A DNA stretch of 64,000 nucleotides, taken from assembly GCA_040220855.1 (NCBI GenBank), contig JAVJVZ010000076.1:26220-90219 (forward strand), read 5' to 3'. The notes under the pieces were generated by a model. It did not search any database. It had not been told where the DNA came from and was given only the letters and a program-made list of their open reading frames with translations. Each line of letters begins with the position of its first letter. Within the stretch, counting starts at the first letter, position 1. Origin of the DNA: Gammaproteobacteria bacterium. GTDB lineage: Bacteria; Pseudomonadota; Gammaproteobacteria; Ga0077536. This document shows positions 5,000-63,810 of this stretch, piece after piece. Both the position numbers and the translations under genes were made by a program.

Positions 5000-6213
5000 A
5001 ATGCGAGATACGTATGCGGGTCACTTGCCGCGGTCGCGCGCAGCAGGACTTCAGGCTGCCGGTAGTGCGCTGCCTTGGCGCGGGTCGCGGGGTCGTTGCC
5101 CTGCGCGCCGATGTAGCTGCCGAGGTCACGACCCCAGGCGACCACCGCACGGGCGTAGCGCAGCCGGGCACGCTCCCATTCGGCGAGGGCCGAACTGCTG
5201 CCGTCGGCGAGAGCCGCGGCGAACGTGGCGGCATCGTCGGCGGCCTTCGAGACGCCGAGGCCGACGTGCGGGCGCGCGGTCGCGGCAGCGTCCCCAAGCA
5301 GCACGACGCGGTCGTGCAGCAGGCGGTCGCTGCAGAAGTCGAACATGCCCTGCAGAAAGGGTTGACGTGTTGCCGCCACGATCGATTGCACCTGGGGCGC
5401 GAGGTATTCGCGCGCCTCGGCACGCATGGCGGCGATGAGTTCGGCACGGATGAGGTGATGCGGAATACCGCCAGCGTGGTAGTTTCCGTCGCCGTCGGTG
5501 AGGTGATCGGCAAGCACGGCGGCATCCGCCGCGCGGTACCAGCCCCAGTTGTACCAGCGGCTGCCGGGGGTGAGCGTGTCATCGGGGCCGGCCACCAGGT
5601 AGCCGAGCCAGTGACCGCCGGGCGCCATGCAGAAGGCCATGCGGTGGGCCACCTGCGCGAGTACCGCATCCGGCACCAGGGCTTCGTCGATCAACCCGCG
5701 CCAGCCGAAGTAGCCGACGTACTCGGCCTGCGTCTGCGGCGCGACGATGGCGCGTACCGTCGAGCGCGCGCCGTCGGCGCCGAGCAGCCAGTCGGCGTCG
5801 ATGCGGGTACCGTCTTCGAACACCGCCGTGACGCCGTCGCCACGGGGTTCGATCGCGCTCAGGGCCTGGCCACCGTGGTAGCTCGCATCCGGCACCTGCG
5901 CGCGCAGGAAACGGTAGATGAGCCCCCAGGAGGTCATGATCTGGTGCATTTCCTGGGTGTGCAGCACGCTGCCATCGCGGTCGAACATCACGCGACCCTG
6001 GGATGCCACGCCCATCTCGTCGCGCAGCTCGATGCCGGCAGCGCGGACCGCGGCGTAGAGCTCGTCGTGGGTGGCGATGCCGGCACCGCGGTTGGCGAGC
6101 GCTTCGCCGGCGCGCTCGTGAACGGACACGGCGAAGCCGCGCGCGCGCAGCGCGATGGCGGCAAACAGGCCCGCCATCGAGCCCCCGATGACGACCACGC
6201 GGGCTGTGCTCAC
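4996..6213 (-). CDS. FAD-dependent aromatic-ring / flavoprotein monooxygenase (UbiH / salicylate-hydroxylase-like)
   Basis: N-terminal VVVIGGSMAGL dinucleotide fold, GADGARSTVR (DG) and LLGDAAATARPHVGLGVSKAADDA (GD) motifs. Start overlaps the stop of the upstream esterase gene. Confidence 0.85.
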   Translation of the reverse strand: MSTARVVVIGGSMAGLFAAIALRARGFAVSVHERAGEALANRGAGIATHDELYAAVRAAGIELRDEMGVASQGRVMFDRDGSVLHTQEMHQIMTSWGLIYRFLRAQVPDASYHGGQALSAIEPRGDGVTAVFEDGTRIDADWLLGADGARSTVRAIVAPQTQAEYVGYFGWRGLIDEALVPDAVLAQVAHRMAFCMAPGGHWLGYLVAGPDDTLTPGSRWYNWGWYRAADAAVLADHLTDGDGNYHAGGIPHHLIRAELIAAMRAEAREYLAPQVQSIVAATRQPFLQGMFDFCSDRLLHDRVVLLGDAAATARPHVGLGVSKAADDAATFAAALADGSSSALAEWERARLRYARAVVAWGRDLGSYIGAQGNDPATRAKAAHYRQPEVLLRATAASDPHTYLAL

Positions 6214-56592: not shown

Positions 56593-56850
56593 TCAGGCTG
56601 CTGCCTCGAACGTGCCGAGCAGACCGTCGATATGCTCGAGGTGCTGCCGGTAGAGGCGTGCCAGTCCGCTGAAGTCGTGGGGATCGCGCTGCGTGGCGTC
56701 GGCCAGCCGGGCGCTGAACTCGGCGCGGTCGGCGAGCAGCGCCGTGCGGCGCTCGGCCAGCTCGCTCGCATAGGCGTCGACCAGGTGGGCGAGCCCCTGT
56801 TCGCGCTCGTCACGATGGCGCAAGCGGCTGAGTTCGAGCGGCGTCGGCAT
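56593..56850 (-). CDS. hypothetical small protein (85 aa)
   Basis: GAGGAG RBS 6 nt before ATG. No family recognised. Confidence 0.35.
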   Translation of the reverse strand: MPTPLELSRLRHRDEREQGLAHLVDAYASELAERRTALLADRAEFSARLADATQRDPHDFSGLARLYRQHLEHIDGLLGTFEAAA

Positions 56851-57053: not shown

Positions 57054-59171
57054 TCAGGAATTGAGCAGCCGCTTGAGCTGGTCGAGTGTGCCGCGGCCGG
57101 TCTCGCGATTGGCCGCGGCGTCGGTGACGTGGCCGTCCCAGGCCAGCTCGTCGGCCGGCAGTTCGGCGAGAAAGCGGCTCGGCTCGCAGCTCTCGAGTTG
57201 GCCGTAGCGCTTGCGCGTGCGACAGAAGGTGAGGGTCAGCGTGCGCTTGGCACGGGTGATACCGACGTAGGCGAGGCGGCGTTCTTCCTCGATGGTGTCC
57301 TGCTCGATGCTCGAGCGATGGGGCAGCAGGTTCTCTTCGAAACCTGCCAGGTAGACGTGCGGGTACTCGAGGCCCTTGGCGGCGTGCAGCGTGGTCAGCG
57401 CGACGCCGTCATAGTCGCTATCGCTGTCCTTGCGTTCTGCAATGTCGAACAGGGTCAGCGCGGCGACGATGTCGGCCGTGGTGCGCGTTTCGTCGCGGGC
57501 GTGGATGCGCTCGATCCAGCGCGACAGCTCGGCCACGTTGTCCTTGCGCCGTTCGGCGGCCTTCTCGTTCTCGGCGTTCTGCTCGAGCCAGTCGTCGTAG
57601 CCGATGTCGGCGAGCAGGGTGGCGAATGCCGCCGGTGGCGATGATGCCTCGTGCTCGCGCTGGAAGCGTGTCAGCCAGGTGGCGAACTCGCCCACGCGGC
57701 GCCCGACCTGGGGCGAGACCTGCAGGCGAAAGCGTTCATCGAGGGCGGTCTCCAACAAGGACAGGCCGCTCGCCGCGGCGACGTCGACCAGCGTCTTCAC
57801 GGTCTGCGTGCCGATTGCCCGCCGCGGCGTGTTGATGATGCGCAGGAGCGCGTTGTTGTCATCGGGGTTGGCCAGCAGACGCAGGTAGCACACGCAGTCC
57901 TTGACCTCGGCGTAGTCGAAGAACGAGCGGCCGCCGGACAGCACGTAGGGGATGTCGCGCTCGCGAAATGCGCGTTCGAACAGTCGCGCCTGGAAGTTGG
58001 AGCGCAGCAGTACCGCGAAATCGGCGTAACCGCCGCCGTGCATGAGTTTGCGGTGCAGGATGTCGTTGGCAATGCGCTCGGTCTCGTCGTGTTCGGAGTT
58101 CACGGCGACGACGCGAATCTTGTCGCCGAAGCCGTGCTCCGACCACAGCTTCTTTTCAAACACGTGCGGGTTGTTCGCAATCAGCGTATTGGCGGCCTTC
58201 AGAATGATGCCGCTCGAGCGATAGTTCTGCTCGAGCTTGACCACTTTCAGGCGCGGAAAGTCCTGTGCCAGCTGGGCGATGTTCTCGGGCCGCGCGCCGC
58301 GCCAGGCATAGATCGACTGGTCGTCGTCGCCGACCGCGGTGAGACGTTGATGCTCGCCGACCAGCAGCCGCACCAGTTCGTACTGCGACAGATTGGTGTC
58401 CTGGTACTCGTCAACGAGCATGAAATCGATGCGCGCGCGCCAGCGTGCGAGCGCTTCCGGATCGTTGCTGAGCAGGCGCACCGGCCCCATGATGAGATCG
58501 TCGAAGTCGACCGCGTTGAAGGTCATCAGCGCTTCGCAGTAGGGGCCGTAGCAGCGTGCGGCGAGTGCTTCGGCCGGTGTCGGCGCGTCGAGCACGACCG
58601 CCTCGGGCGCCACCATGGCGTACTTCCATGCCGAGATCGCCTGCTGTACGACGGGCACCGCGACGTCCGTACCCGGACTGTCCCGACGCATCAGGTCGGC
58701 GAGCAGCCCGGCGCAGTCGCCGGCGTCGAGGATGCTGAAGCCCCCCCGATAACCGAGCGCTGCGTGCTCTTCGCGCAGGATGCGCAGGCCGAGGGTGTGA
58801 AAGGTCGAGATCCAGGGCTTGACGGCGCGCTTGCCGAACAGCGTGCGCACGCGCTCGCGCATCTCGCGCGCAGCCTTGTTGGTAAAGGTGATGGCCGCAA
58901 TCTGTCCCGGTTCGGCGCCGCAGGCATCGATCAGGTGGACAATCTTGTGCGCAATGACGCCGGTCTTGCCGCTACCGGCCCCGGCGAGCACGAGGAGGGG
59001 GCCGTCGCTGTAGCGGACGGCTTCGCGTTGTCGCTGATTGAGCTTGTGCAAGAGTCGATGGTTCGGCGCTGGGAGGATGCCGGTGCGTGTGAGGCGCTGA
59101 CAGGCGCCGCCGCGCTCGCAAAACGGGCAGGCCGGCAGCGCCCCCGTTCGGACCGCGGCGATTGTAGGCAA
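57054..59171 (-). CDS. rep: ATP-dependent DNA helicase Rep (UvrD/Rep family)
   Basis: Collinear with E. coli Rep (…LVLAGAGSGKT…TFTNKAAREM…VDEYQDTN…VGDDDQSIYAWRGA…YVGITRA…). Homology starts at an in-frame TTG at 59051 (M/LHKLNQRQREAV), so the upstream 40 codons (to 59171) may not be translated. Confidence 0.85.
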   Translation of the reverse strand: MPTIAAVRTGALPACPFCERGGACQRLTRTGILPAPNHRLLHKLNQRQREAVRYSDGPLLVLAGAGSGKTGVIAHKIVHLIDACGAEPGQIAAITFTNKAAREMRERVRTLFGKRAVKPWISTFHTLGLRILREEHAALGYRGGFSILDAGDCAGLLADLMRRDSPGTDVAVPVVQQAISAWKYAMVAPEAVVLDAPTPAEALAARCYGPYCEALMTFNAVDFDDLIMGPVRLLSNDPEALARWRARIDFMLVDEYQDTNLSQYELVRLLVGEHQRLTAVGDDDQSIYAWRGARPENIAQLAQDFPRLKVVKLEQNYRSSGIILKAANTLIANNPHVFEKKLWSEHGFGDKIRVVAVNSEHDETERIANDILHRKLMHGGGYADFAVLLRSNFQARLFERAFRERDIPYVLSGGRSFFDYAEVKDCVCYLRLLANPDDNNALLRIINTPRRAIGTQTVKTLVDVAAASGLSLLETALDERFRLQVSPQVGRRVGEFATWLTRFQREHEASSPPAAFATLLADIGYDDWLEQNAENEKAAERRKDNVAELSRWIERIHARDETRTTADIVAALTLFDIAERKDSDSDYDGVALTTLHAAKGLEYPHVYLAGFEENLLPHRSSIEQDTIEEERRLAYVGITRAKRTLTLTFCRTRKRYGQLESCEPSRFLAELPADELAWDGHVTDAAANRETGRGTLDQLKRLLNS

Positions 59172-59225: not shown

Positions 59226-59564
59226 TCAGCGCCGCCAGCCGCGGCGCCAGCGATGATCGCGATGCTGGTGATGGTGGCGGTGCGCCCAGCGCCGGTGGTC
59301 GTGGCGGTCGAAATGCCGCCAGTGGCGCGGCGGGCGTGGCGCGTAGTACCCGAAATTGCCATACGCGTGCGGGGCGGGCGCAAAGCTGCCCCAGCCGGGC
59401 CGGTAATGGTAGCCGTGGTGATGGATCGCGGGCGTGGTGATGCTGAAGCCGAACCAGGTGCGCGGCGGGCCGTGGTAGACCGCGCCGCTCCAGGCCTGCG
59501 CCGCGCCGGCGGCGGCGAGCAGCAGGAGGGCGAACAGGGGACGAATGGCTCTCGGCGACGACAT
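59226..59564 (-). CDS. small secreted His/Arg/Trp-rich protein (112 aa)
   Basis: Signal peptide MSSPRAIRPLFALLLLAAAGAAQA. The mature part has HHH, HxH and RxW repeats (…RHWRHFDRHDHRRWAHRHHHQHRDHRWRRGWRR). GAGGAG RBS. Confidence 0.5.
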   Translation of the reverse strand: MSSPRAIRPLFALLLLAAAGAAQAWSGAVYHGPPRTWFGFSITTPAIHHHGYHYRPGWGSFAPAPHAYGNFGYYAPRPPRHWRHFDRHDHRRWAHRHHHQHRDHRWRRGWRR

Positions 59565-59723
59565 GGCGGTTTCTCCTCGGTCGATGCTTGCCCCGACGGT
59601 AGCGCTGCGGCCCTGAATCGGTGCTGAATGCCGGCGTCGATTCCCGCCGCGGCACCACCGCGCGTACAATGAGCGCCGGCGTGACGGGACGGCGTGCGCC
59701 GTGACCGAACGAGGAGTGTCCGA

Positions 59724-60227
59724 TTGCCGAAGCGCGCTGTCAGCGGCGCCGTGCTGCTCACCGCCGGCCTCGTGATCGGCTGGATGGGTGGTACCTGGTC
59801 GGCGGCACGTACGTTGCTGCCACCGGTGACGCAGGTGGTCGTCGCCGAAGCGGGCATGGCATTCGATGCCCGTCTCGATACAGGTGCCACGGTGTCCTCG
59901 ATTCACGCTGAAGACATCGTGGTCGCCGGCGGAAGAACGTCGCCGGGGCGCGATGATGTCGGGCGCACGGTGCATTTCGTGCTCGTCAACGCGGCCGGCG
60001 AACGGCGCGCCTTGCAGGCGCCGATAGCACTCGTGCGCGGCATCCGCATGGCCGATTGCCGCGAGGTGCGTTACCACGTGTGGCTCACCATCGTGCATCG
60101 CGGGCGCGCGCTGCGCGTGCTCGCCAACCTCAATGATCGCAGCGGCGCGGCCGACAAGCTGCTGCTGGGACGCAACTGGCTGCGCCACGGTTATGCCGTG
60201 GCAGCGCCCGAAGAAGCCGAAATATGA
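59724..60227 (+). CDS. retropepsin-like aspartic protease (DUF785 / COG4067 'putative ATP-dependent zinc protease')
   Basis: LDTGATVSSIHA is a D-T/S-G-A aspartyl-protease motif. TTG start 7 nt after GAGGAG; the ORF track allows an upstream GTG at 59694. Confidence 0.65.
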   Translation: MPKRAVSGAVLLTAGLVIGWMGGTWSAARTLLPPVTQVVVAEAGMAFDARLDTGATVSSIHAEDIVVAGGRTSPGRDDVGRTVHFVLVNAAGERRALQAPIALVRGIRMADCREVRYHVWLTIVHRGRALRVLANLNDRSGAADKLLLGRNWLRHGYAVAAPEEAEI

Positions 60228-61420
60228 GCACCATTTCCGAGCAACCCCACGTCGACCTCACGGTCGGAACCACCGAGCTGCGCCTGCTCGGCACCGCCCA
60301 CGTGTCGCGAGCGAGCGCCGAGGCAGTGAGCGCCGAGATCGAGTCACGCCGCTACGACGCCGTTGCCATCGAACTCTGCGAGAACCGTCATCGCGGCATG
60401 GTCGACCCGGACGCCCTCGGCCGCATGGACCTGTTCGAGGTGATCCGCGGCGGCAAGGCGCCGATGGTCACTGCGATGCTCGCCATGGGTGCCTTCCAGC
60501 AGCGCATCGCCGAGCAGTTCGGCATCGAACCGGGCGCCGAGATGCGTGCGGCCATCAACGGCACCCAGGCGTACACGCTGCCGCTGCATCTCATCGATCG
60601 CGACATCGGCACGACCCTGCGGCGCATCTATGCCAACGTCCCCTGGTACAAGCGCATGTACCTGTTCAGCGGACTGTTCGCGAGCGTGGTGGTGAACGAC
60701 GACATCCCCGAAGAAGACATCGAGGCTCTCAAGCAGGGTGATCTCCTGGAAAGCACGTTCGCCCAGTTTGCCGATGCCGCCGGTCCCATCTACGAGCCGC
60801 TCATCGACGAGCGCGACCAGTACATGGCTGCGCGCCTGCTCGGCGTGATCGAGGACGAGCAGCCCGAACGCCTGCTCGCGGTGGTGGGTGCCGGCCACCT
60901 CAAGGGTATCGCGCACTGGCTGGGCGAGGGCATCGACGATCGCGCCGCGCGGCTGGCTGAGCTCGACAGCACCCCGCCACGTCGGCGGTGGCTGCGATTC
61001 CTGCCGTGGCTGGTGGTGGCCCTGGTACTGGTCGGCTTCGTACTCGGCTTTCTGCGCAGCCCCGAGCTCGGCCTGCGCCTGGTTGTCGAGTGGATCCTGA
61101 TCAACGGCACACTGGCTGCGCTTGGCTGCCTCATCGCCGGCGGCCACGCGCTGACCGTGGTGACGGGGTTCGTCGCCGCACCGCTGACGTCGCTCAACCC
61201 GACCGTCGGCGCCGGGATGGTCACGGCGCTGGTCGAGGCCTGGGTGCGCAAGCCCACCGTGGCCGATTTCGCGCGCCTGCGTCAGGACACCACGAGCCTG
61301 GCCGGCTGGCGGCACAATCGCGTCGCGCGGACCTTCCTGGTCTTCTTCCTCAGCACGCTCGGCTCGGCTATCGGCACCTACGTGGCGGGATTCAGGATTT
61401 TCGACCACCTGGTCGGCTGA
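60224..61420 (+). CDS. TraB/GumN family protein
   Basis: 398 aa; N-terminal …LLGTAHVS… and …VVGAGHLKG… TraB/GumN motifs plus a C-terminal membrane domain. ATGA overlap with the protease gene. Confidence 0.75.
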   Translation: MSTISEQPHVDLTVGTTELRLLGTAHVSRASAEAVSAEIESRRYDAVAIELCENRHRGMVDPDALGRMDLFEVIRGGKAPMVTAMLAMGAFQQRIAEQFGIEPGAEMRAAINGTQAYTLPLHLIDRDIGTTLRRIYANVPWYKRMYLFSGLFASVVVNDDIPEEDIEALKQGDLLESTFAQFADAAGPIYEPLIDERDQYMAARLLGVIEDEQPERLLAVVGAGHLKGIAHWLGEGIDDRAARLAELDSTPPRRRWLRFLPWLVVALVLVGFVLGFLRSPELGLRLVVEWILINGTLAALGCLIAGGHALTVVTGFVAAPLTSLNPTVGAGMVTALVEAWVRKPTVADFARLRQDTTSLAGWRHNRVARTFLVFFLSTLGSAIGTYVAGFRIFDHLVG

Positions 61421-62729
61421 GCGGCGCCATCACGCGCCGCCAGGCGATGGTGGCGAGCACCACCGCACTGGCGGCGTGCACGGCGAGGATGACGCACGCC
61501 GCGAGCGGCGCGTCGTACAGTGGTGGACGGATCAGCGTGGCCAGCCCCTCGAGACCGAGCAAATCCAGGGCGGCGGGCACGACGCGGTTGAGCAGCGCGA
61601 TGCAGACGATGGTAGCGATCTCCGCGCGGCGCGTGACACGGCCGTAACTGAACGCGGCAAGCAGCGCGAGGTCGCGCAGCGCGAACAGCGCGAACGCGAG
61701 TGCGACGCCGCCGAGATTGTCCGCCCGTTCGTTGCTGAGCGCGGCATCGGCGCCGCCCAGCGTCGCGATGAGCCCGAAGGCGAGCGCGATGGCGAGCGAA
61801 CTGGCTGCCAGCGGCAGCGCTTCGAGTGCGCGGCGCGCGTCTCCGTCGGCGAGTGCGTGCAACACGCGGCGTACCTGTACCGGGTCGCGGGCGAAGGCGA
61901 AACCGGCAACGTAGGCGAGCAGCGCGGCGAACAAGGCTGCGGCCGAACACAGTGCCGGTATCAGCGCAGGCTGCGGCGGCGGCGCGAGGCCGGCGAGGAG
62001 CAGGGCAAGAAACAGCACGAAAGCGAGCCAGGCCCATGGCGTGGTGCGGATGTCGAGCTCGATGCACATGGCGCGGTAGGCACCGAGCACCGCCCATGCC
62101 GCGAGCAATGCGAGCAGGGTGAGCATGAAGGTGGTCGTTGCCACCGCGTGGCCGAACCACGTGACCGCGGCGACCGGTAGCAGGCTGCCGGGCGGCACGA
62201 CCAGGGCGAAGGTCGGCGGCAGCACCAGTGCGAGCAGCAAGAGGGCGAGCGCAATCGACAGGCGCGCGCGCTGGTCGCGCACACGATGCGCGGTCACGAT
62301 GGCCGACGTCAGCGCCAGGGCCTGAGCGAGGAGCGCGGCGAGCACCAGCGCGAGCGCCGTGATCGCGAACTCGCCGAGATCGCGTTCTCCGCGCCAGCCG
62401 AACAGGATGCCGAGCCAGATGGCTCCGGCGTACCAGGGCATCAGCGTGGCGCCGAGCAACTTGCCCCAGGTCATCGACCATGCCGACAGCGCCGCCATGC
62501 GCTGAATGTCCCAGGTGTGTTCGCGGACCTCGTCGAGCACGGCGTTGCGCGCCTGGCTGGCGCCCCACAGGATGGTCGTGGCGACGAAGCCGAGCATGGC
62601 GCCGCCCGGTACGAGCGCCGGCACGGCGCGGCCGAGCACGAAGCTCGTGCCGATCAACGCGAGCGGGATCAGCCACAGGCGCTGCGCCGTCGCTTCCAGC
62701 CAGAGCAGGCGACGCAGTTCAGGGTTCAT
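61392..62729 (-). CDS. ABC-2 type transporter permease (polytopic membrane protein)
   Basis: 445 aa highly hydrophobic ORF. Start overlaps the ATPase gene stop by 11 nt. Confidence 0.55.
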   Translation of the reverse strand: MNPELRRLLWLEATAQRLWLIPLALIGTSFVLGRAVPALVPGGAMLGFVATTILWGASQARNAVLDEVREHTWDIQRMAALSAWSMTWGKLLGATLMPWYAGAIWLGILFGWRGERDLGEFAITALALVLAALLAQALALTSAIVTAHRVRDQRARLSIALALLLLALVLPPTFALVVPPGSLLPVAAVTWFGHAVATTTFMLTLLALLAAWAVLGAYRAMCIELDIRTTPWAWLAFVLFLALLLAGLAPPPQPALIPALCSAAALFAALLAYVAGFAFARDPVQVRRVLHALADGDARRALEALPLAASSLAIALAFGLIATLGGADAALSNERADNLGGVALAFALFALRDLALLAAFSYGRVTRRAEIATIVCIALLNRVVPAALDLLGLEGLATLIRPPLYDAPLAACVILAVHAASAVVLATIAWRRVMAPLSRPGGRKS

Positions 62730-63687
62730 CACGAAATGCCTCGTCCGCGGCGCGTGCCAGCGAGCGTAGGTAGGATTGTTGCAGGTCTTCGCGCAGCAAC
62801 GCGAAGTGCGCCACGCCAATGTCGGCATTGACGAGCGCGGCCAGCACGCCGGCGCGCTCGGCGGCGCCACCGCGCACGGCGCAGCGCAAGCGGCCTGGGT
62901 AGGCGGCATCGACCTCGATCGCGCTCACCGCAGGCTGGGCCGCGAGGACGGCGTGCGCGGACTCGGCGGCACCTGTCACCTCGAGCTCCACACGCGCCAG
63001 CGGCGCCCGTGCGACGCCGAGCGCGCGATGTTCGACCACGCGTCCGTCGCGCAGGATCAGCAGCGCGCTCGAATAGGATTCGAGCTCGGCGAGGATATGC
63101 GAGGAGACGATCAGCGTCATGCCACGGTCGCGCAAGGCCATGATCAGTTCGCCGAGCTGGTAGCGCGCCTCCGGGTCGAGCCCCGCGGCGGGCTCGTCGA
63201 GCAGAATCACGCGCGGTGCGTGAATGACCGCCTGTGCGATCGCGAGGCGCTGGCGCAGGCCGCGCGAGAGTTCGCCAGCGCGCTGGTCGAGGCGTTCGGC
63301 GAGACCGAGTTCGGCCGCCGTCTGCGCGACGAGTGCGGCCCGCGTGTCGCGGTCGACGCCGTTCGCGGCGGCGACGTAATCGAGGCAGCGGCGCACGCTG
63401 AGTTCGGCGTAGAGACCGAAGAAGTCCGCCAGGTAGCCGACCGCGCGGTGGCTGCGCCGGGGCTCGGCTACGACGTCGATGCCCGCAACGCGTATGCGGC
63501 CGGCGAGCGGGCGGTCCATGCCGGCCAGGCAGCGCAGCAGGCTGGTCTTGCCGGCACCGTTCGGCCCCACCAGTGCAGTCACGCTGCCGGCTTCGATGGT
63601 GAAGCCGACGTCGTCGAGCGCACGCAAGCCGGGGTACTCGTAGACGAGATGCTCGACTTCGATGATCGCTGGGTTGGTCGTTTGCAT
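62719..63687 (-). CDS. ABC transporter ATP-binding protein
   Basis: Walker A GPNGAGKTS, signature LSRGLRQRL, Walker B ILLDEP. Confidence 0.85.
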   Translation of the reverse strand: MQTTNPAIIEVEHLVYEYPGLRALDDVGFTIEAGSVTALVGPNGAGKTSLLRCLAGMDRPLAGRIRVAGIDVVAEPRRSHRAVGYLADFFGLYAELSVRRCLDYVAAANGVDRDTRAALVAQTAAELGLAERLDQRAGELSRGLRQRLAIAQAVIHAPRVILLDEPAAGLDPEARYQLGELIMALRDRGMTLIVSSHILAELESYSSALLILRDGRVVEHRALGVARAPLARVELEVTGAAESAHAVLAAQPAVSAIEVDAAYPGRLRCAVRGGAAERAGVLAALVNADIGVAHFALLREDLQQSYLRSLARAADEAFRDEP

Positions 63688-63810
63688 GATGGCGCGCCAC
63701 CCGGGGCGCACGGCTGGCTGCGTGGCGACCGCGAGTGTCGGCGCATCCTACCATCGCCACACGCGGGCGACGTCCGGCGACGACCATCGCGGGGTGTAGA
63801 CTCGACGACC

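Follow-up and report, generated by a model that had tools for sequence, protein, structure and literature searches.

Do a small secreted protein and two putative membrane proteases encoded back to back with it form a single functional module? The question is raised by a locus in a 64,000-nucleotide (nt) stretch of contig JAVJVZ010000076.1 (Gammaproteobacteria bacterium, assembly GCA_040220855.1), hereafter called the window, in which three genes sit between a rep helicase gene and an ABC-transporter pair. The first encodes a 112-amino-acid (aa) secreted protein on the reverse strand; the other two, divergently transcribed from it, encode a retropepsin-like aspartic peptidase of family PF05618 and a TraB-family membrane protein. 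An earlier note on this DNA likened the three genes to a precursor/processing-protease module, or to a metal-binding periplasmic protein with its maturation machinery. Our comparative analysis leads us to favour, with moderate confidence, two independent back-to-back transcription units in a conserved core-chromosome neighbourhood, together with the regulation and substrates that we propose for them below. The layout itself is as the earlier note described it: since an alignment of 40 homologues places the peptidase start at TTG 59724 (167 aa) and not at GTG 59694, the divergent intergenic region measures 159 nt, against the ~160 nt given there.

A peptidase-profile scan over one genome per species yielded 49 loci, and tblastn comparisons revealed that about 31 of these share the gene order rep(-), gap, RimB-like(+), TraB(+), a membrane protein of ~445-505 aa (-) and an ABC ATPase (-). 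These collinear loci all belong to uncultured Gammaproteobacteria with 47-71% GC, and identical proteins are present in metagenome-assembled genomes (MAGs) labelled Gammaproteobacteria bacterium. When look-ups and a metagenome scan are added, the block that includes the small open reading frame (ORF), on the (-) strand between rep and the RimB-like gene, is found in a total of ~35 independent MAG loci; this is the recurrence that the earlier note had proposed to look for. Across the collinear loci, the RimB-like proteins are 47-72% and the TraB proteins 53-90% identical. By tblastn, TraB was not found beside more distant peptidase homologues (<=43% identity) in Shewanella, Photobacterium, Ferrimonas and Desulfobacteraceae. 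Other flanking genes are likewise collinear, including those for an acyl-CoA-type ligase, a conserved 85-91-aa ORF and a SpoU methylase; housekeeping genes lie farther upstream in the window, and citrate synthase is among the chromosomal context genes. The region is collinear core chromosome of this lineage, and adjacency alone is therefore weak evidence for a shared function.

By its sequence features, the small ORF is a real, positionally conserved gene for a secreted protein. A GAGGAG motif lies 8 nt upstream of its ATG, and its GC content by codon position (0.70/0.61/0.87) resembles that of the adjacent genes, while the antisense frames show the wrong pattern. The product begins with a classical signal peptide, MSSPRAIRPLFALLLLAAAGAAQA, followed by WSG, with a signal-peptidase site between AQA and W. 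The mature part of 88 residues contains 16 His, 15 Arg, 9 Gly, 9 Pro, 7 Trp, 6 Tyr and 3 Asp, and has no Cys, in agreement with the clean signal peptide and the H/R/W/Y/G-rich mature region reported in the earlier note. The mini-protein carries a net charge of about +12. Some 25 distinct loci have, between rep and the peptidase gene and on the same strand as rep, an ORF that encodes a signal peptide and is 85-135 aa long. Substitutions between close relatives peak at the third codon position (26 vs 11 and 9 in one comparison, 22 vs 10 and 6 in another).

It seems to us scarcely credible that this ORF is an untranslated chance frame in 70% GC DNA, with its promoter driving a non-coding RNA or rep. 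High-GC DNA does yield many long spurious ORFs, but the same ORF is found in loci of 47-55% GC, in which few ORFs arise by chance. When 5.8 billion protein sequences were searched with a word index, the only match was the protein itself; against this, the signal peptide with its AxA site is kept despite sequence turnover, a ribosome-binding site stands at the correct distance in all loci, and coding-type GC at the third codon position (GC3) is confined to this frame, as is the C-terminal motif described below, with the third-position excess in addition. The gene does lie upstream of rep on the same strand. No RNA family was found in the window with Rfam, and the predicted RNA folds of the two intergenic regions are unremarkable (z-scores -2.4 and -1.6). 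A hairpin, GCAAGCGC-CAC-GCGCTTGC, occurs 3' of the small gene and has no U-tract.

Ten of the small proteins form one family detectable with hidden Markov models (HMMs; alignment A2), with the common motif FGFSxGxP[VI]IH[RH][YH]GYHYxPRW and a His/Arg/Tyr-rich tail. Further members are similar in composition yet not HMM-detectable, and the members of a third group (loci L018, L020, L022, L024, L028 and L052) are net acidic, with the common sequence FQRYFDRHxRAH; an HMM built from the His/Arg-rich type misses the acidic type, and vice versa. All small proteins carry R[YH][FY][DGSAR]xH about 15-30 residues before the C-terminus. This pattern has 27 matches in the 992,000 residues of the six-frame ORFs from all loci, 23 of them inside the small ORF at this position. 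A single family is inferred from position, promoter and a 6-residue motif alone where the His/Arg-rich and acidic types are concerned, which counts against treating them as one.

The small protein evolves far faster than its neighbours: its nonsynonymous/synonymous codon ratio is 1.0-3.0, compared with 0.1-0.33 for Rep, the RimB-like peptidase and TraB in the same genome pairs. Across the family, the number of His residues ranges from 3 to 24 and the net charge from +15 to -10. The extreme His/Arg/Trp richness in the window is a lineage-specific state and not a family trait. Among 1.8 billion representatives, phmmer found three relatives and one repetitive false match, and a metagenome scan with the type-1 alignment found two loci only, both with identical synteny; neither search, each of low sensitivity for such a sequence, found the protein outside this neighbourhood. 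Pfam and NCBIfam hold no family for eight variants of the small protein, the sole match being a sub-threshold one to DUF7503 over the signal peptide. The DUF2502 YpeC/YaaX-type families, which we take to be similar in composition, and other small periplasmic families gave no HMM match to it. In one locus (L036, 5145-5674, (-) strand), a signal-peptide ORF (5456-5674) is followed by a His/Gly-rich ORF in another frame (5145-5456), with no PhoP-type box; the pair may represent a small gene that has suffered a frameshift or is in decay.

How is such a variable gene expressed? In an alignment of the 110-nt regions preceding the small ORFs of 26 distinct loci, we found the same arrangement in all 26: a direct repeat, [AG]TTCAG-N5-[AG]TTCAG, then 11 nt, a hexamer, and ~30 nt with the ribosome-binding site before the ATG. 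The last base of the repeat, or box, is T or C in three loci. The hexamer exactly 11 nt downstream reads TAnnnT in 23 of the 26 loci and CAnnnT in three, across a GC range of 47-71%, and the distance from the box to the ATG is always 62-69 nt. The window box, ATTCAGCACCGATTCAG, is the sole match in 64 kilobases even with 1 mismatch permitted. Each of 30 loci has the pattern RTTCAGNNNNNRTTCAG a single time, always in front of the small ORF, and the box is missing from loci that have no small ORF.

The published PhoP consensus of Pseudomonas aeruginosa is GTTCAGNNNNNRTTCAG (PMC3156716); the window box has A and not G at base 1, and many other loci match exactly. Architecture I PhoP-activated promoters of Salmonella, exemplified by mgtA, phoP, yrbL, slyB and pmrD, carry a single direct-orientation box that replaces the -35 element and lies 11-12 nt upstream of the -10 element (PMC3335776). 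The promoter of the small gene fits this orientation and spacing, with 11 nt to the predicted -10. A generic sigma-70 promoter/terminator scan found neither a promoter nor a terminator here, and the small-gene promoter has no -35 box, which fits an activator-dependent promoter. Given the sequence of the box and its architecture I spacing, the small gene is predicted to be directly activated by a PhoP-type response regulator. Several points speak against this assignment. The -10 hexamers are weak (e.g., TACCGT and TAGCCT) and predicted only, no gene for PhoP/PhoQ or another two-component regulator was seen among the 10 window ORFs sampled with Pfam, and a different OmpR-family protein that recognises a similar sequence could be the regulator.

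A more specific form of the last point, which we consider possible but rather unlikely, is that the repeat is bound not by PhoP but by some other member of the OmpR/PhoB family, such as a CreB-like regulator, and that the small protein serves in the periplasm under general envelope stress or metal stress (Ni/Zn/Cu), with no connection to Mg2+. In geometry the box is like the cre/blr tag of CreB/BlrA promoters, TTCACN6TTCAC (PMC4689548), with which it agrees at 4 of 5 bases per half-site, and the apparent lack of phoPQ among the sampled ORFs would suit this reading; most boxes, however, match the PhoP consensus exactly, an agreement that extends to the flanking purine and to G at position 6. 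Only L018 and L032 have TTCAC, and there it forms the second half-site. We did not adopt the tag TTCACnnnnnnTTCAC as a description of the box, as the half-sites read TTCAG in nearly all loci and the PhoP consensus fits base for base. As to function, the 18% His of the mature protein is typical of Ni/Zn/Cu(II) binders, but a high His content does not characterise the family, some members of which are net acidic. The metal-binding half of the earlier note's second suggestion thus remains plausible, as the PhoP-type box ties the gene to divalent-cation stress, whereas we saw no sign of a dedicated maturation machinery.

If the box is a PhoP site, what might the small protein do? P. aeruginosa OprH, which we take to be a basic outer-membrane protein made under low Mg2+, resembles the product encoded in this genome in that the latter is small, exported and strongly cationic. 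With OprH and the Salmonella genes slyB, pmrD, yrbL and mgtA (PMC3335776), the small gene shares the box, its direct orientation and the 11 nt to the -10 element; it differs in that there is no sequence similarity, the charge of the family extends into the acidic range, and regulation here is predicted. The analogy with OprH and other small PhoP-activated envelope proteins suggests a role in the envelope or in the divalent-cation response. In the favoured reading, the first unit would comprise a Sec-secreted, fast-evolving small protein, with the signal peptide and the C-terminal R[YH]F[DG]xH defining the family, expressed from a putative direct-orientation, Pseudomonas-type PhoP box 11 nt upstream of TAnnnT. 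We infer that it would be a directly PhoP-activated envelope protein, produced in response to envelope damage or a shortage of Mg2+/Ca2+, as sensed by PhoQ. In this genome, the protein may have drifted to a polycationic, His-rich state, which would suit binding to anionic envelope sites, such as lipopolysaccharide phosphates, or to divalent metals.

The first gene of the divergent operon encodes the PF05618 peptidase. This family, once called DUF785 or 'Zn_protease', is now named RimB-like, and the remark in the earlier note that none of the three proteins had been characterised is outdated in its case: biochemical and structural work on RimB and RloA1-3 has been published (PMC11957791, PMC12239564). 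The product matches PF05618 with 32.4 bits (cut-off 27) and carries the motif LDTGA, with D52 and G54 invariant and T53 present in >=90% of 40 sequences, so that the DTGA-type retropepsin-like protease with an N-terminal transmembrane (TM) segment was correctly recognised. The profile of 40 homologues matches 9g59, 2pma and 9g58 at E-values from 2e-6 to 2e-4. An AlphaFold2 (AF2) model with a predicted local distance difference test score (pLDDT) of 89 consists of one long helix followed by a beta domain, and Foldseek retrieved with it Legionella Lpg0085 (2pma), P. aeruginosa RloA2 (9g59) and P. fluorescens RloA (9g58) at E-values from 1e-8 to 1e-6, then HIV-1/retroviral proteases.

The peptidase helix has no signal-peptidase site and a nearly invariant G19xxxG23, and it is therefore read as a membrane anchor, not a cleaved signal; the GxxxG helix could aid formation of the obligate dimer. 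Net charge is +1.1 to +1.5 before the helix and +0.2 after it, placing the catalytic domain probably in the periplasm. This topology call depends on a modest charge bias, and the substrate preference discussed next is an extrapolation from RloA; both should be counted against the scheme. R50, R116 and R139 are invariant and align with K46, R114 and R137 of RloA, which hold the poly-Glu chain (PMC12239564). RimB trims poly-glutamate tails off ribosomal protein S6 (PMC11957791), and the secreted RloA1-3, which are required for hypo-osmotic tolerance, biofilm formation and antibiotic tolerance, cut runs of >=8 Glu, with Arg within the substrate reducing or abolishing cleavage by RloA (PMC12239564). 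The peptidase has kept the arginines for poly-Glu binding, and its most likely substrates are therefore acidic, Glu-rich or polyglutamylated ones, cut at the membrane.

On sequence comparison, the peptidase represents a separate PF05618 subfamily and is orthologous to neither RimB nor RloA1-3. Its best score against the NCBIfam equivalogs is 28 bits, for RloA3, with 24 bits for RimB, where the cut-offs are 200-280 bits. With the Pseudomonas proteins, cytoplasmic RimB and secreted RloA1-3, it shares the Pfam family, the fold, the DTG and NLxDRS/LLGR motifs and the basic residues for poly-Glu, and with RloA also an N-terminal hydrophobic segment of the export type, which here differs in being a long conserved GxxxG anchor; identity to RimB and RloA is only ~25%. 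The known enzymes are partnered by an ATP-grasp ligase (RimK, RloC) or by an inactive transglutaminase (RloB), whereas the peptidase here, whose activity is predicted, is partnered by TraB. No ATP-grasp ligase (RimK/RloC) was found within ~6 kb on either side in related loci, the neighbours being rep, TraB, the membrane protein and the ABC ATPase. Public (NCBI) records label the peptidase and its relatives 'RimK/LysX family protein' or 'ATP-dependent zinc protease', and both names are unfit for a 167-aa retropepsin-fold aspartic peptidase. As separate observations, two Shewanella loci (L038, 2053-2889; L039, 5638-6441) have two tandem RimB/RloA-like genes and no TraB, and the invariant stretch VRGIRMADCREVRYHV (window 60030-60080, residues 95-120) resembles the ribosomal protein S12 segment VRGGRAQDCPGVRYH (PDB 6yw5, E 0.95). 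The latter resemblance is probably due to chance, curious as it is for a relative of RimB, which acts on a ribosomal protein.

The second gene of the operon encodes the TraB/GumN-family protein, which matches PF01963 with 87 bits (cut-off 26.8) and TIGR00261 over residues 17-393 with 297.5 bits (cut-off 178). Within its N-terminal 240 residues, G23-T24-A25-H26, E50 and G222-A223-G224-H225 are invariant in 35 sequences. This combination of paired GxxH motifs and a conserved Glu was reportedly defined by Bazan et al. in 2013 and by Sanchez-Pulido and Ponting in the same year. The C-terminal 145 residues form four to five conserved helices with invariant polar residues, in line with the C-terminal membrane domain that the earlier note had described. 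There are six Lys/Arg residues ahead of the first membrane helix and another five in the 343-366 loop, a distribution that places the TIKI-like domain, a putative metallopeptidase domain, in the cytoplasm by prediction. No PDB match was found by sequence. Foldseek on the TraB model m61d524115595 retrieved, as the only significant structural neighbour, a ~383-residue subunit of Tetrahymena mitochondrial complex IV (8bqs_DQ, 7w5z_E; E 2e-4, TM-score ~0.32), with EreC and 2qgm at E > 2 only; the model comparison suggests that a TraB-like protein has been built into the respiratory complex IV of Tetrahymena.

The protein resembles the TraB/PrgY/TIKI superfamily, which includes the enterococcal pheromone-shutdown proteins, the metazoan Wnt protease TIKI and TRABD, in its full-length TIGR00261 match and in the GTxH, GxGH and Glu motifs, and it resembles PrgY/TraB also in the polytopic C-terminal membrane domain. 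It differs from the enterococcal pheromone-shutdown proteins in its chromosomal core context, in which pheromone plasmid genes are absent, and in the predicted cytoplasmic location of the catalytic domain. Here, TraB is coupled to an aspartic peptidase, an arrangement not found in the literature searched. The overlap of the two genes noted earlier (ATGA) recurs: of 38 distinct loci, 26 have overlapping stop and start codons (ATGA or TGATG), and in seven more the genes are <=10 nt apart. All peptidases of the subfamily that we found adjoin TraB, with the exception of L026, where the RimB-like gene occurs without TraB. Close TraB orthologues (62-66% identity) exist without the peptidase in L057, L062 and L064, the first two having TraB alone. 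The peptidase and TraB genes form a genuinely coupled operon. The second unit would accordingly pair (i) a RimB/RloA-family retropepsin-type peptidase tethered to the inner membrane via its GxxxG helix, with a catalytic domain that is probably periplasmic, with (ii) a polytopic TraB/TIKI-family membrane protein whose putative metallopeptidase domain would face the cytoplasm; the peptidase would need TraB as an obligate partner in acting on acidic substrates at the membrane.

Does the small gene belong to this operon in any functional sense? Presence and absence patterns separate the two. In at least 7 loci (L010, L011, L016, L021, L023, L027 and L053), the small gene and its box are missing while RimB-like and TraB genes are present; conversely, L064 has the small gene, the box and TraB but no RimB-like gene. 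Where other genes have been inserted between the small gene and the peptidase gene (L012, L013 and L032), the box remains with the small gene. The operon has its own -10 element, TACAAT(G), conserved in most high-GC loci at a variable distance of 14-49 nt from the box. The small gene is coupled to neither the peptidase nor TraB. A qualification concerns regulation: in Salmonella, reverse-oriented PhoP boxes can activate at 27, 37 or 48 nt (architecture V; PMC3335776), and in several loci the box lies in reverse orientation 33-49 nt upstream of the RimB-like/TraB -10. The PhoP-type box may thus co-regulate the operon in some lineages, a point that tells against full independence. We did not adopt co-regulation by the same box as a general explanation, as its spacing to the operon -10 is not conserved.

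These patterns bear directly on the module proposed in the earlier note, in which the mini-protein would be a precursor or substrate processed by the retropepsin-like peptidase, TraB or both into a mature peptide or metal-binding protein. Divergent adjacency is kept in ~23 loci, but in a region that is collinear throughout the lineage such linkage is weak evidence. The peptidase domain, being probably periplasmic, would share a compartment with the secreted protein, whereas the catalytic domain of TraB is predicted to be cytoplasmic. A hypervariable sequence with a short conserved C-terminal motif is often typical of precursor peptides, and the distances from the box to the operon -10 could permit co-regulation in some loci; the promoters are nevertheless separate, and each side has been lost without the other. 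Moreover, the conserved basic channel predicts acidic substrates, and Arg blocks RloA, while the mini-protein has a net charge of +12, making it an unlikely substrate of the peptidase by analogy with RloA. Because of the separate promoters, the independent loss, the basic substrate channel and the collinearity of the region, the precursor/protease reading is not supported, and we regard it as improbable.

More speculative still, and very unlikely in our view, is that the mini-protein, the box and the membrane peptidases make up a Gram-negative peptide-signalling or self-sensing circuit. PhoQ-type sensors respond to cationic peptides. In such a circuit, the periplasmic retropepsin-like peptidase would free a C-terminal fragment containing R[YH]FDxH, TraB would limit self-stimulation, as PrgY does in enterococci, and the fragment would feed back via a PhoQ-like sensor onto its own promoter. 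The locus does resemble clusters for ribosomally synthesised and post-translationally modified peptides (RiPPs) and the enterococcal pheromone/PrgY systems in having a small variable secreted ORF beside predicted membrane proteases. It differs from them in that the small gene and the proteases are gained or lost independently and share no operon, that no modification enzymes, dedicated exporter or sensor genes are shown to be linked to the small gene, that the downstream ABC pair is not tied to it, and that the predicted protease specificity is opposite in charge.

The reading with two independent units has consequences for both. A membrane-anchored peptidase translationally coupled to TraB offers a defined two-gene system for seeking both the physiological substrates of RloA/RimB peptidases and the function of bacterial TraB proteins outside enterococcal plasmids. 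The small protein represents an unusual pairing of an invariant regulator box with a hypervariable product. Provided that PhoP does bind there, the box would mark a new envelope protein family of the PhoP regulon in an uncultured lineage, and a test case for the tuning of composition (polycationic, His/Arg-rich vs acidic) under divalent-cation stress. New here are a RimB/RloA subfamily with a new partner and an unannotated small-protein family with a recognisable promoter; the database labels of the peptidase are corrected by this result. The features of the locus are collected in Table 1.

Table 1. Features of the proposed small-gene and RimB-like/TraB transcription units, in window coordinates
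Feature	Position	Strand	Basis
Small secreted protein gene, 112 aa	59226-59564	(-)	GC3, composition, third-position excess, relatives P0242/P0243/P0245 (alignment A2), positional equivalents in ~25 loci
Signal peptide, residues 1-24 of small protein	59493-59564	(-)	
C-terminal family motif RHFDRH, residues 83-88 of small protein (instance of R[YH][FY][DGSAR]xH)	59301-59318	(-)	Regular-expression search
Shine-Dalgarno GAGGAG, small gene	59573-59578	(-)	
Predicted -10 hexamer TACCGT (TAnnnT), small gene	59596-59601	(-)	11-nt phasing to box across loci
PhoP-type box ATTCAGCACCGATTCAG, hexamer direct repeat with 5-nt spacer	59613-59629	(-)	Pattern search and published consensus
Predicted -10 hexamer TACAAT, RimB-like/TraB operon	59665-59670	(+)	TACAAT(G) kept in most high-GC loci, 14-49 nt from box
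Ribosome-binding site GAGGAG, RimB-like peptidase gene	59711-59716	(+)	
Membrane-anchored RimB/RloA-like retropepsin-type aspartic peptidase, 167 aa	59724-60227	(+)	PF05618, alignment A1, AF2, Foldseek
Peptidase TM helix, residues 3-30, with G19xxxG23	59730-59813	(+)	
Peptidase DTG motif	59877-59885	(+)	
ATGA stop/start overlap, peptidase/TraB	60224-60227	(+)	Implies translational coupling
TraB/TIKI-family membrane protein, 398 aa	60224-61420	(+)	PF01963, TIGR00261, invariant motifs, helices, charge distribution
TraB GTAH	60290-60301	(+)	
TraB Glu50	60371-60373	(+)	
TraB GAGH	60887-60898	(+)	
TraB membrane domain, residues 255-398	60986-61417	(+)	

Several smaller observations concern the surroundings. 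The rep ORF spans 57054-59171 (-); its homologues align from residue 41, and the NCBI product is shorter (665 aa). Between the acyl-CoA-type ligase gene and rep lies an 85-aa ORF without a family (56593-56850, (-)), whose position is kept, at 85-91 aa, in L001, L055, L057, L060 and L064. On the other side, an ABC-2/DrrA-type ATPase (62719-63711, (-)) and the 445-505-aa membrane protein, which has no Pfam family (61392-62909, (-)), converge on TraB, the 3' end of the membrane-protein gene overlapping that of TraB by 29 nt. This pair is kept in most loci with a RimB-like gene, including L026, and is missing in the TraB loci without a RimB-like gene (L057, L062 and L064) and also in L010, L032 and L036.

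Within the operon, the peptidase and TraB genes are 167-302 nt apart and do not overlap in L058 (3933-4251), L055 (5812-6016) and L029 (6459-6627), and the gap in L055 has a called 56-aa ORF. The extra genes that separate the small gene from the RimB-like gene occupy 4166-5938 in L012, 4165-5938 in L013 and 932-1720 in L032. One insert in these three loci encodes a ~250-aa exported FecR-domain protein on the strand of the small gene, with a possible twin-arginine signal, and L012 and L013 also carry a gene for a 310-aa exported protein that has no family and the C-terminal sequence YRYH. In L012, the PhoP-type box lies just 4 nt past the stop codon of the FecR-like gene.

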